Positions 48,506 to 60,021 are shown, counted from the first letter of the stretch. The stretch is 64,000 nt of DNA from Polyangiales bacterium (GCA_044229975.1 JBGARZ010000019.1:32001-96000); one strand, 5' to 3'. Made by a program: numbers and translations. The notes: a model not told the origin generated them from the letters alone.

Positions 48506-48704
48506 TCTGCGAGAAGAACGTGGCCGCGGCAGGCGTACTAGCGACGCACGCTCAACCCCACACCGGCGTCTGTTCTGGTCACGCGGAGCCGACGCCGGCG
48601 CTTCACCACACGGAGGGGGGGACCCCGAGCCGACCAGCGGTTCAGTGTCCGTCATCCGGTTCAACCACCTTGCGCAGTACCAGCGCCCAAGGAGCCCCAC
48701 GCCC

Positions 48705-49160
48705 ATGTCGGACAACACCAAGAAGCCGCCGGTCGTCACCACCCTCACCGAGGACGACATCGTCGAGGAGAACCCGCGTCGGCGGTCGGTCCTCGCGCTG
48801 CTGAGCGCCACCGTCGTCGGAGGCGCCGCCAAGGCGCTCGGCGGGTGCATCGTCGCCAACCCGCAGCCCGTCCAGACGGGCCCGGTCTACGCGCAGCCCC
48901 AGGGGGTCGTCGTGCAGCAGGGAGCCGTCCAGACGGGCGTCACCGACGGTGACTCGGGCGCCTACGCCGACCCGGTCAACGGTGGTCGCGGCCAGCCGCG
49001 CGGCATGCAGACGGGCGTCACCGACGGCGACTCGGGCACCTACTCCGATCCCGTCAACGGCGGCCGTGGTCGCCGCGGCTACCAGACCGGCATCACCGAC
49101 GCCGACTCCGGGTCCTACGCCGACGGCGTCGGGCGCGGCCGCGGCGGCCGTCGCTACTGA
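48705..49160 (+). CDS. Tat-type lipoprotein with three Asp/Gly/Arg repeat cores; candidate RiPP-like precursor
   Basis: AAGGAG SD then ATG 48705; RRRSVL + hydrophobic stretch + LGGC lipobox; three QTG[VI]TD[GA]DSGxY[AS]D..GRG repeats. Confidence 0.7.
   Translation: MSDNTKKPPVVTTLTEDDIVEENPRRRSVLALLSATVVGGAAKALGGCIVANPQPVQTGPVYAQPQGVVVQQGAVQTGVTDGDSGAYADPVNGGRGQPRGMQTGVTDGDSGTYSDPVNGGRGRRGYQTGITDADSGSYADGVGRGRGGRRY
48930..49157 (+). repeat. Three intragenic tandem repeats (78/75/75 bp)
   Basis: Units at 48930, 49008 and 49083 encode QTGVTDGDSGAYADPVNGGRG, QTGVTDGDSGTYSDPVNGGRG and QTGITDADSGSYADGVGRGRG. Confidence 0.9.
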
Positions 49161-49196
49161 GCGCAGCGCTCCCCCGCCTCTTCTCTCCCCACCGCC

Positions 49197-50390
49197 ATGA
49201 ACCTGTCCTTCCCCACGCTGGCGCGGATCATCGATCCGTTGCCCGTCGAGGTGTTCTTCCGCGACCACTGGGAGCGCGCCCCGCTGGTGCTCCATCGCGA
49301 ACGCCCGCGCGCCTTCGAGGGGCTGCTCTCGCTGGGTGACATCGATCGCTACCTCGGCACCAACGACGTGCACCACCCGTCGGTGTCGCTCGTCGACCAC
49401 CGCCGCAAGATCGCCCCCGAGGAGTACGCGTACCCGAGCGGCCTCGTGGACGCGGTGAAGCTCTTCAAGCTCTACGAGGCGGGCGCCACGATGGTGTTCG
49501 CGCAGCTCGAAGGGAATCACCAGCCGCTGTTCGAGTGTGTGCGCGCGCTGGAGCACGAGTTCAGCACGCGCTTCCAGGCCAACATCTACCTCACGCCGGG
49601 CAACGCCCAGGGCTTCCATCCCCACTACGACAGCCACGACGTCCTCGTGGTGCAGGTCGAGGGAACCAAGCACTGGATGCTCTACGACCAGGTCATCGAC
49701 ACGCCCCTGCGCCGCCAGGAGTTCGACCCGAAGGAGACGGTCTGCGGGCCGCTGTCGCAGGAGTTCGACCTTCACCCTGGTGATGTCCTCTACATCCCGC
49801 GCGGCCTGATGCACGACGCGCGCACCGCCGACGGCGACGGCCACTCGCTGCACGTCACCTTCGGCGCGCTCTTCACGTCTTGGACGGAGCTCATGGCCGA
49901 GGCCCTCGGCCGCTGGGCCCTCACTGACGTGCACGGTCGACGCAGCCTCCCGGCGGGCTTCGCGCGCGACGGCTTCGACGCAGCGGGCGCGCGGTCGTAC
50001 TTCGTGGAGGCGCTCAAGCGCTTCACGGCGGCCGCCGAAGCAGACGCCGACGGTGTGCTCGAACACTTCGCCCGCGACCTCGTCGACACCCGACACCCGC
50101 GACTGCCGGGGCAGTTCTCACAGCTCGCGGGCCTCGGCGCGCTCACGGCCGACCGACCCGTCGGCGTTCGCCCCGGTGTGGTGCTGCGTGTCGATGACGA
50201 CGGTGATCGCGTGATCCTCGCCGCCTACGGAACCGAGCTCGCCTTCCCGTCGCACGTCGCCGCGGCGCTGCGCTTCGCGGTGACCCACGAGCGCTACACC
50301 GCGCGCGACCTCCCGGGGCCGCTCGATGAGGAGGGGCGCCTCGTGCTGGTGCGTCGGCTCATCCGCGAGGGCGTGCTCCAGGCGCTCTGA
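49197..50390 (+). CDS. JmjC/cupin 2-oxoglutarate Fe(II) oxygenase, ROX (NO66/YcfD-like) family
   Basis: FF..HWE..P, NIYLTP, GFHPHYD (HxD), QVEGTKHW, GDVLYIPRGLMH (distal His), C-terminal winged-helix-like LVRRLIREG. Confidence 0.9.
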   Translation: MNLSFPTLARIIDPLPVEVFFRDHWERAPLVLHRERPRAFEGLLSLGDIDRYLGTNDVHHPSVSLVDHRRKIAPEEYAYPSGLVDAVKLFKLYEAGATMVFAQLEGNHQPLFECVRALEHEFSTRFQANIYLTPGNAQGFHPHYDSHDVLVVQVEGTKHWMLYDQVIDTPLRRQEFDPKETVCGPLSQEFDLHPGDVLYIPRGLMHDARTADGDGHSLHVTFGALFTSWTELMAEALGRWALTDVHGRRSLPAGFARDGFDAAGARSYFVEALKRFTAAAEADADGVLEHFARDLVDTRHPRLPGQFSQLAGLGALTADRPVGVRPGVVLRVDDDGDRVILAAYGTELAFPSHVAAALRFAVTHERYTARDLPGPLDEEGRLVLVRRLIREGVLQAL

Positions 50391-55121: not shown

Positions 55122-55254
55122 GCCGATGAGCGCGCAGCGTCGACGTCTTGTCGCGATCGCGCCGCGAGACGCTCACTTCGCAACGGTAGTCCTGTCGCCG
55201 CGCAACGAGACCGGCTCATCGGTCAGTCCAAGCGGGGCGCAGACAGGTACTGCC

Positions 55255-56007
55255 ATGCACCGTTTCTCACTGATCAAGCTGTTCACCTCGTTCGCGATGC
55301 TCGGCGCCGAGTGGGTCATGTGGGTGCTCATCGCGCTGTCGTTCGTGACCGTATCAATCATGATCGAGCGGGCCCGGTACTACCGCTCGCTCAACGATGA
55401 CCTCGACACCCTCGCGACCAACTTCGACGCCCACCTCCGCAAGGGCGACCTCACCGCCGCCTCCAAGCTCCTGCGCGCGTCGTCGTCACCCGCCGCGCTC
55501 GTCGCGCTCGCTGGGCTGCGCGAGGTCGCTCGTGGCGCCGACGCCGCCGAGTGCGTGATGGCCGGCACCCTGGCCCGCGTCCGCCGCGAGCTCGAACGTC
55601 GCCTCGCCTTCCTCAACACCGTCGGCAACAACGCCCCCTTCGTCGGGCTCTTCGGCACCGTCATCGGGATCATCCAGGCCTTCGACGCCCTCAAGCCGCC
55701 CGCCGGTCTGCGCGGTGCCGCCGCTGCGGCCGCCGCCGCCGCCAACACCGGCCGCGTGATGGGAACCATCGCCGAAGCCCTCGTCGCCACGGCCATCGGG
55801 CTGCTCGTCGCGATTCCCTCGGTGGCCGCGTACAACCTCTTCCAACGCCGCATCAAGTCGATGCTCACGGACACCGAGGCGCTCACCCAGCTCGTGCTGG
55901 CCTACGCGCACGCGCCCATCGCACCGGCCGCCTCGGCGGTCGCCCCGGCGCCGCTCACCAACGGCCACGCCGTCGCCGCCACCTCCACCTCCGCGCAGGC
56001 GAGCTGA
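55255..56007 (+). CDS. exbB: MotA/TolQ/ExbB proton-channel protein
   Basis: LNTVGNNAPFVGLFGTVIGII, IAEALVATAIGLLVAIP. Confidence 0.88.
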   Translation: MHRFSLIKLFTSFAMLGAEWVMWVLIALSFVTVSIMIERARYYRSLNDDLDTLATNFDAHLRKGDLTAASKLLRASSSPAALVALAGLREVARGADAAECVMAGTLARVRRELERRLAFLNTVGNNAPFVGLFGTVIGIIQAFDALKPPAGLRGAAAAAAAAANTGRVMGTIAEALVATAIGLLVAIPSVAAYNLFQRRIKSMLTDTEALTQLVLAYAHAPIAPAASAVAPAPLTNGHAVAATSTSAQAS

Positions 56008-56011
56008 GACC

Positions 56012-56430
<419 letters not shown>

Positions 56431-56434
<4 letters not shown>

Positions 56435-57237
56435 ACGCCCCCGCCCCCATCGACGACGCCGACGAACTCGCCGGGAGCTCCGTCTTCCGCAAGCCGCCGG
56501 GGCGTGTGTGGGTCGTCTCCTTCGCGGCCCACGCGGCGGTCTTCGCCGTGCTCGGCGTCGTCGGAACCTTCATCGGCGTGAAGACCGGCTTCATCCCGCC
56601 GACCATCATCGAGCTCGAAGCGCCGCCCCCGCCGCGCCGCCCGCTGCCGCCGCCCGTCGCGCCACCGCCGCGCCCCACGGCGCCAGAGGCCACGGCGCCC
56701 CGCGCCCCGCGTCCTGCCAACCGTCCCGCCAACAACGCCGCGCGCCCCGGTCGCGCCGCCGCGCCGCACGTGCTCGCCGCGCAGGGCAACGGCCCCGGCA
56801 ACGGCGACGAGATGCCCGTCGGTGACAACAACGACTTCCAGGGCGGCGTCGTCGGCAACGGTGGCGGTGGCGCCGTGGAGACTCCGCGGCCTGCGCCCGA
56901 ACCCGAGCCCGAGCCATCGGTACACGCCGGGACGGGTCGTCGTGGCCCCGTACAGATTCCGGAGGAGGCCGTACCACCGGTCGCGGTCGATCGACCGATG
57001 CCGGCGTACCCCGAAGGTGCGCGGCGCAGCGGGGTGCAGGCCGAGGTCGTCGCCCGCGTGGTCGTCGACGAGGACGGCTCCGTGAGCGCGGTGGAGATCC
57101 TCCGCGGGCACCCCGACTTCGACACCCTCGTGCGCGAGGTGCTGCGTCGCTGGCGCTTCCAGCCGGCCACCATCGATGGCCACGCGCTCGCCGTCTACCA
57201 GATCGTCCGTGTCCCCTTCCGCCTCGAAAACCTCTGA
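56431..57237 (+). CDS. tonB: TonB energy transducer
   Basis: TM with S...H motif, Pro-rich spacer, PAYPEGARRSG..W.F.PA C-terminal domain. Confidence 0.88.
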
Positions 57238-57249
57238 CGGAAGTCCCTC

Positions 57250-60021
<2,772 letters not shown>

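Follow-up and report, generated by a model that had tools for sequence, protein, structure and literature searches.

Hydroxylases that combine a JmjC-type catalytic domain with a RiPP recognition element (RRE) and act on peptides that are ribosomally synthesized and modified post-translationally (RiPPs) are already known, as the accessible portions of the reports on MppG, PhaI and the RREFam042 family describe. In the Moorena system MppG/MppE, the leader in the model adds its L(X)4L motif to the RRE sheet, and turnover is impaired when this motif is mutated, according to the available part of that account (bioRxiv 10.64898/2026.10.04.756588). The available text on RRE-Finder defines the RRE by three strands followed by helices, with an α3/β3 binding cleft, and places bacterial homologues of its Cupin_JmjC_RRE family in RiPP-like contexts (PMC12710340). 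Here we analyse a two-gene locus in a 64,000-nucleotide stretch of DNA from a Polyangiales bacterium (GCA_044229975.1 JBGARZ010000019.1:32001-96000; hereafter, the window; about 70% GC). A gene for a small precursor protein, with a twin-arginine translocation (Tat) signal and three repeats containing a D-x-D motif, is followed by a gene for an NO66-like Fe(II)/2-oxoglutarate (2OG) JmjC oxygenase. On the basis of sequence comparison and a modelled complex, we propose that the pair is probably a tag-guided oxygenase system in which Asp of D-x-D is likely to be β-hydroxylated before likely export through Tat.

A first-pass annotation of the window had described the locus as a candidate new RiPP-like system. 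The RiPP-like arrangement holds, with a small precursor, a conserved leader, an adjoining enzyme and a winged helix predicted to bind the leader. 'New system' overstated the case: published RiPP enzymes already include JmjC/2OG hydroxylases that carry an RRE at the C terminus.

Linkage of the precursor to an oxygenase clade

Co-occurrence of the repeat protein and the JmjC enzyme had been set beforehand as a test; the linkage held whichever gene the search started from, and the genome itself contains it twice. A six-frame scan of the genome detected the repeat at two places only, the window and a second locus on contig C39 (292769-291160, − strand; L015), where a 132-residue precursor of Tat type (about 292769-292371) is followed, 26 nt further on, by an enzyme 36% identical to that of the window. 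In the C39 precursor, a cleavage-like AEA site and four Cys are seen, and no lipobox is clear; the accompanying enzyme branches deepest in the clade, and the pair is also present in same-genus genomes. Starting from the precursor, the enzyme was found directly behind it at seven of eight contig loci; the eighth, a Rhodospirillales locus with 11 repeats, is an orphan in a genome that holds another precursor–enzyme pair. Among 41 relatives, 23 genomes carry the precursor, and an enzyme lies within 1.5 kb of it at 29 of the 30 loci examined (of 49 matches), the thirtieth ending at a contig edge; these 30 loci are kin and not independent of one another.

Starting from the enzyme, we took the best 80 of at least 578 alignment matches from 21 of the 64 parts of a metagenome set, 45 of these loci having adequate flanks (at least 800 nt upstream and at least 400 nt downstream). 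Profiles built from first-search precursor homologues alone placed a partner at 54 of the 80 loci and at 39 of the 45 with adequate flanks; a second-round profile, which is partly circular, raised the former to 56 and again gave 39. Two of the six well-flanked misses (L066 and L069, sharing one identical gene with L064) have, by eye, a tagged lipoprotein without twin arginines. With by-eye cases included, 33 of 38 clusters (60% identity) have a partner, and its placement is upstream in 59 cases, downstream in 10 and divergent in 8. The GRG-type repeat profile of the window matches only 7 of the 80 loci; by the leader profile, the small partner at most of the remaining loci shares the leader and differs in its core.

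In 301 genomes of Alphaproteobacteria, the class of genome G251, the enzyme profile matches 37, and 30 of the 40 matches were examined. A partner stands beside all six enzymes scoring above 380 bits (five of six with independent profiles) and beside none of the 24 examined sister-clade Cupin_4 genes below 200 bits. Repeat proteins occur in four of the 301 genomes, all four among the six with the enzyme. Orphan repeat copies are confined to two enzyme-bearing genomes, which suggests modification in trans.

The orphans are tagless proteins of 4-11 repeats (G251 contigs C29, C43 and C44; G494:C1 at about 760.7 kb), with the enzyme elsewhere in the genome; the expectation that genomes with tagless precursors would have no enzyme was rejected, as G251 and G494 carry both. 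Three clade members at which no partner was seen (L029, L034 and L036) have a radical-SAM-like open reading frame (ORF) downstream, with CxxxCxxC read in L029. Among 65 flanking proteins at about 30 loci, no family recurs except in chance pairs, patatin and sulfatase among them; adjacent MOSC and formylglycine-generating enzyme (FGE)-sulfatase-like genes recur only in close kin and were not counted as parts of the system.

A ribosomal oxygenase fold outside the YcfD lineage

The window enzyme has the ribosomal oxygenase (ROX) fold yet is not a YcfD/RoxA orthologue. It begins 36 nt past the precursor stop codon and matches PF08007 (E 1.3e-27), and its structure model (predicted local distance difference test (pLDDT) 95.8) has the three-domain architecture with a dimerization domain and a winged helix. 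H143-x-D145...H206 and K158 are intact, all four invariant across the clade. The first-pass annotation had read the gene in this way, as a JmjC enzyme with an intact HxD...H and, at its C terminus, a winged-helix-like domain. In sequence, the enzyme is closer to NO66 and MINA53 (E ~1e-31) than to YxbC (1e-12) or YcfD (1e-5 to 1e-4), and in structure it is closer to NO66 (TM-score 0.74) than to YcfD (0.55). Its separation from the uL16 hydroxylase YcfD is borne out by 23% identity to the E. coli protein over 193 residues (43.5 bits) and by a tree, built without NO66 and MINA53, in which YcfD falls outside the enzyme clade. The high-scoring enzymes form a single branch (46 representatives; Shimodaira–Hasegawa-like approximate likelihood ratio test (SH-aLRT) support 97), the support for which falls to 81 after four plasmid homologues are added; as the group was chosen by profile score, the independent result is the association with a partner and not monophyly.

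A housekeeping role for the enzyme as a ribosomal hydroxylase of the YcfD/RoxA kind, with an incidental neighbour, is extremely unlikely. Its nearest solved structures are indeed NO66 and MINA53, several homologues are named ribosomal protein L16 (uL16) Arg81 hydroxylase by JGI, and the host genome has no clear YcfD orthologue and no better YcfD candidate than the window enzyme; the low identity to YcfD, the well-supported separate clade, a scattered occurrence (6 of 251 and 6 of 301 sampled genomes) and tight linkage to a peptide in three orientations all speak against such a role. Low-scoring alphaproteobacterial cupins were considered as YcfD orthologues and rejected. A third full-length Cupin_4 protein in the genome (C23:337103-338224, L017) comes from a partnerless clade.

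A leader tag predicted to be gripped by the winged helix

The precursor leaders share a six-residue L-x4-I tag ahead of the twin arginines. L14 and I19 are each at least 90% conserved (54 leaders), and the tag is present in 66 of 68 distinct leaders, its end lying seven (52 leaders), six (13) or five (1) residues from the RR pair; five further loci were not scorable, and the leader profile itself favours tagged leaders. None of 11 ordinary Tat-like proteins of the host genome has the strict tag.

Modelling the enzyme with its peptide was among the checks suggested by the first-pass annotation. A model with leader residues 5-40, run alongside three controls, docks the leader in the winged helix with a score of 0.71 (0.69-0.73) versus 0.02 for the best control; the runs share at least 91% of contacts and the partner pLDDT is 61-63. 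Among solved complexes, 116 of 157 attain the score mark, as do 2 of 215 mismatched pairs, rates that are only rough with our own alignments. In the model, residues 10-24 of the leader contact the enzyme at 345-354 and 375-387, with L14 packing on 380/383/384 and I19 on 349/350/387, within the stretches 348-351 and 380-387, and the predicted tag site is the β3/α3 cleft. In the full model, the winged helix comprises strands 330-334, 338-343 and 346-351 and helices 352-363, 369-371 (short) and 378-390, in the order βββ-α-(three-residue helix)-α; folded alone, it reaches a pLDDT of 55 and yields PqqD and TbiB1 only as non-significant matches (E 0.5-0.8). The winged helix is predicted from the complex model to act as an RRE that grips the L-x4-I tag.

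In one lineage (L020/L106, L101 and L105), the precursors start right at the Tat motif, and the winged helix of the enzymes scores 18-26 bits versus a median of 99, with the catalytic (265-275 versus 306) and dimerization (86-91 versus 96) domains retained; L045, which is cut by the contig start, and L083, which has LSGTDI, were left out of this set. Tagless precursors beginning MKPTRRLSRR are found among proteins P0056-P0084. A partner of about 60 residues (L107:290-487) has the tag and RR, no hydrophobic region and one DVD, and lies near a TonB-dependent receptor gene. The partner at L064:172-513, identical in L066 and L069, has the tag and a lipobox and no twin arginines, a combination suggesting that export has shifted to Sec while the tag was kept.

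As the predicted contact falls on the n-region beside the twin arginines, the JmjC protein could instead be mainly a signal-peptide chaperone that delays Tat export and modifies its partner hardly or not at all. We consider this very unlikely: every metal and 2OG ligand is invariant, and the tag and D-x-D persist in partners that lack the twin arginines or any signal peptide. That the enzyme modifies its partner is very probable.

Asp of D-x-D as the candidate target

Asp is the sole residue type of ten tested that is found in all 74 distinct mature parts, which were taken mechanically from 28 residues past RR. D-x-D occurs in 72 of the 74, one exception ending at a contig edge, and 320 times in all versus 140±9 in shuffles, with DD and DxxD depleted, although repeats inflate the counts. 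Absent from some mature parts are Arg (16 of 74), Asn (29), His (35), Lys (33) and the GRG motif (40). Asp, Asn and Arg had all been named as possible targets; Asp stands, whereas Asn and Arg are each missing from many partners. The cores themselves range from one C-terminal D-x-D (ETDKD) to 11 repeats and include DPDK, DRD, TDSD and GRG types, some of them Lys-rich, and the middle residue of D-x-D varies (P, S, G, R, A, N, T or K). In the enzyme, by contrast with this variety, the pocket residues Q127, N129, Y131, H147, H219, T221 and G223 are invariant in 46 of 46 clade representatives irrespective of core type, which suggests a single target.

A plasmid search added an independent case. On the Streptomyces clavuligerus plasmid NZ_CP065235.1 (L184:5793-7188), a 48-residue peptide with the tag SLEPDEI and the cores ADNDP and ADPDP, and with no signal peptide, Arg or His, precedes an enzyme 38% identical to that of the window; genes for an S9 peptidase and for an ABC transporter lie nearby, making this a compact candidate RiPP cluster, and our literature search found no paper on this tagged D-x-D locus. 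The two proteins of the pair are WP_009999493.1 and WP_009999494.1. Two further Streptomyces have similar peptides, and the Kitasatospora plasmid NZ_CP108409.1 (L187:3614-5176) encodes an unannotated, tagged, acidic 51-residue peptide ending in DDTD, then the enzyme, then an ABC-transporter-like ORF. Because the S. clavuligerus peptide combines tag and D-x-D and has neither a Tat signal nor Arg, β-hydroxylation of Asp is the likeliest chemistry, and from these sequences the modification is probably β-hydroxy-Asp. The Arg of GRG was rejected as a family-wide target, being absent from the 16 Arg-free partners and the S. clavuligerus peptide.

An unlikely alternative keeps the partnership and changes the chemistry: Pro, the middle residue or, in the window subfamily, the Arg of GRG would be oxidized, or a cross-link or desaturation introduced. 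A 2025 paper, by its title, reportedly concerns macrocyclization in RiPPs by an α-ketoglutarate (αKG)-dependent dioxygenase, Pro is missing from only 3 of the 74 mature parts, and R19 of GRG is invariant within the genus. Other JmjC RiPP enzymes work on Orn or Phe, as the accessible parts of their reports state (PMC8784127, PMC12707348, PMC11575548). Weighing the other way are the variable middle residue, the partners without Arg and the pocket shared by all 46 representatives.

Precursor and oxygenase genes of the window

The main elements of the precursor (Table 1) were correctly read at first pass: a good Shine–Dalgarno sequence, the GGA core of which, in a purine-rich setting, is kept in nine of nine same-genus upstream regions; the acidic TLTEDDI (residues 13-19); the twin-arginine motif RRRSVL (25-30); a hydrophobic region; and L-G-G-C. 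R26 and R27 are invariant in 36 homologues, and TatC is encoded in the host genome (E 3.5e-66). The Tat consensus usually has Phe where the window precursor has Val, and many of its relatives have RRSFL; Gly at −2 of the lipobox is likewise non-canonical. The designation of Tat lipoprotein may suit the window copy, with its Tat signal and lipobox-like Cys48, but does not extend to the family, of which 17 of 75 partners carry a lipobox-like Cys and some are devoid of a Tat signal; a lipid anchor was accordingly rejected as a family trait.

Table 1 Positions of the precursor, the oxygenase and their elements within the window
Feature	Position	Strand	Basis or remark
Shine–Dalgarno sequence AAGGAG	48689..48694	+	10 nt 5' of the precursor ATG; direct reading
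151-residue precursor: tag, Tat signal, lipobox-like Cys48, Gln/Val/Pro spacer, three repeats	48705..49160	+	
L14-x4-I19, candidate recognition tag in the signal-peptide n-region	48744..48761	+	conservation in leaders; docking model
Twin arginines R26-R27 of the Tat signal	48780..48785	+	homologue alignment
Lipobox-like L-G-G-C48, putative lipid anchor	48837..48848	+	sequence; Cys in most same-family orthologues
Core 1, QTGVTDGDSGAYADPVNGGRG	48930..48992	+	direct reading
Core 2, QTGVTDGDSGTYSDPVNGGRG	49008..49070	+	direct reading
Core 3, QTGITDADSGSYADGVGRGRG	49083..49145	+	direct reading
397-residue NO66-like Fe(II)/2OG JmjC oxygenase: barrel, dimerization helices, C-terminal winged helix	49197..50390	+	
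C-terminal winged helix, RRE topology	50148..50387	+	predicted structure

Three near-identical cores with synonymous differences had been reported. Cores 1 and 2 differ by seven synonymous and two non-synonymous codon changes, whereas core 3 is more diverged from both (synonymous/non-synonymous 4/6 and 6/7), so that 'near-identical' is valid for cores 1 and 2 only. Core positions D5, D7, G9, D13, G18, R19 and G20 are invariant in 35 of 35 cores from nine same-genus genomes. With 82 homologues found (the closest in metagenome-assembled genomes of Myxococcaceae, Polyangiales and Deltaproteobacteria) and these invariant positions, the conservation of the precursor exceeds chance. GC content at third codon positions is 0.93 for the precursor gene versus 0.91 for the enzyme gene. 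The precursor matches no Pfam or NCBIfam family above cut-off and nothing in the ESM Atlas at ≥0.9. A promoter and terminator scan at the gene returned no sigma-70 site and no terminator, and an alignment of same-genus upstream regions gave no common motif apart from the Shine–Dalgarno sequence.

At L011:768-1386, the repeats are split across two frames, by a frameshift or an assembly error. In the window, 5-10 kb downstream of the pair (55126-60021), ORFs resemble by eye ExbB, ExbD, TonB and a TonB-dependent receptor, with no evidence of a tie to the pair.

Proposed mechanism and product

We propose that the winged helix of the oxygenase would hold the precursor in the cytoplasm through its L-x4-I tag and that the enzyme would processively hydroxylate Cβ of Asp in D-x-D, at one or two sites per repeat, prior to export. 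The modified precursor would then leave via Tat, which exports proteins after translation and so would allow time for modification. Cleavage of the signal peptide would also take off the tag, such that no dedicated protease or transporter would be required. In the window copy only, Cys48 would be lipidated and the product retained on the membrane. Outside the cytoplasm, the α-hydroxy-carboxylates could bind a hard metal ion (Fe3+ or Ca2+); siderophores are known to bind Fe(III) through β-hydroxy-Asp, and we put forward a metal chelator as a tentative assignment of the product.

An equally tentative reading, overlapping with ours and differing on product use only, has the repeats modified as proposed and serving in repeat-fold stabilization, adhesion, signalling or antagonism. 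It would suit a charge-neutral mature part (9 Asp and 9 Arg in the window precursor), flanking proteins without conserved metal-uptake genes, and cores that extend from a single motif to long, sometimes Lys-rich arrays; a chelating role would better explain why D-x-D is retained in otherwise unrelated cores and draws on the siderophore chemistry of β-hydroxy-Asp. Exported RiPP metallophores exist in the bufferins, by the available part of their description (PMC11626156).

Several points weigh against the proposed Asp-hydroxylating, tag-guided pair. Among characterized JmjC-type relatives, the hydroxylated residue is His, Arg, Orn or Phe, and MppG, which bears an RRE, acts on Trp and not on Asp, in the accessible portions of their reports. 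At least 4 of the 45 well-flanked clade members (L025, L029, L034 and L059) have no partner nearby, one full-length partner (L057) has no D-x-D, and Pro is nearly as universal as Asp. As the GRG-type repeat is found at so few metagenome loci, clade members may differ in target. Deeper members on plasmids, 29-30% identical, sit in a LanM cluster (Pseudanabaena, L185) and a radical-SAM/GNAT cluster (Rhizobium, L186) with no D-x-D partner seen; these are probably further JmjC-RRE RiPP enzymes. The docking result may stem from resemblance to solved RRE–leader complexes, and the correlation between tag loss and winged-helix divergence counts as a single event, because the tagless-lineage enzymes are one branch. 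No conserved metal-related neighbour was found among the 65 flanking proteins.

If correct, the proposal supplies a substrate, and a rule for recognizing it by its L-x4-I tag and D-x-D core, for a clade of NO66-like enzymes that are unnamed or called uL16 hydroxylases in databases. Very different cores are seemingly accepted behind one six-residue tag, which would make the enzyme a portable tool for installing β-hydroxy-Asp, and S. clavuligerus offers a cultured, tractable host for the pair. Should the product bind metal, this would be a ribosomal route to a siderophore ligand. More doubtful still is a broader view, in which the family would be a widespread, undescribed class of ribosomal β-hydroxyaspartate metal chelators: the NO66-like enzyme would read a tag in the Tat signal and turn D-x-D arrays into siderophore-type ligands, displayed or released, with the signal peptide serving as RiPP leader and the NO66-type winged helix being an RRE by descent. 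The predicted role of the winged helix bears on the ribosomal oxygenases of humans; how far their own winged helix takes part in substrate binding is unsettled in the accessible text of their description (PMC4295552).

Comparison with known systems

Among ribosomal oxygenases, NO66 (RIOX1), MINA53 (RIOX2) and YcfD/RoxA share the three-domain fold of the window enzyme. The NO66 strand ending LHLTLS corresponds to LHVTFG in the window enzyme; the Ser of the former binds the substrate His. These enzymes differ from our proposal in acting on ribosomal proteins, as the available text describes (PMC4295552). Bufferins, in the part of their account available, are alike in being exported RiPPs with a general export signal on the precursor and a small gene set, their product binding metal; they differ in their Sec signal, in the chemistry of multinuclear non-haem iron-dependent oxidative (MNIO) enzymes on Cys and in a separate partner protein, and their signal peptide is dispensable for modification (PMC11626156).

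SmaO and CinX, as far as their accessible descriptions go, carry out the Fe/2OG β-hydroxylation of Asp in a RiPP that we propose for the window pair, SmaO hydroxylating both Asp of DGDG (PMC12186529). SmaO is otherwise unlike, with a double-glycine leader and a graspetide cluster; 2OG-FeII_Oxy families are among its Pfam matches, and PF08007, cupin and JmjC are absent from the supplements available (PMC12186529). PhaI (PF08007; PMC8784127), BipG (PMC12707348) and CzlI (PMC11575548) are, like the window enzyme, JmjC-type 2OG enzymes on a ribosomal precursor; the accessible reports present them as accessory enzymes of large clusters with Orn or Phe targets, whereas the window oxygenase is the sole enzyme. 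RREFam042 shares the JmjC (PF08007)–RRE fusion, and its description contains no Tat or D-x-D precursor in the text available, with figures that may show one (PMC12710340). Our full-text literature search, from whose coverage most subscription papers are missing, turned up no account of precursors of this Tat/D-x-D family.

MppG, in the available part of its report, likewise has His-x-Asp...His and, at its C terminus, an RRE; this non-haem Fe/αKG hydroxylase performs processive β-hydroxylation and has in L(X)4L the counterpart of the window L-x4-I tag. It is unlike in its long folded Nif11 leader, its lanthipeptide cluster and its Trp targets; compared by description, the window pair has a six-residue tag within a Tat signal, no second enzyme and linear D-x-D repeats. 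With its small precursor, conserved leader, variable core and adjoining enzyme, the window pair would, by sequence and model, work like an RRE-dependent RiPP hydroxylase.

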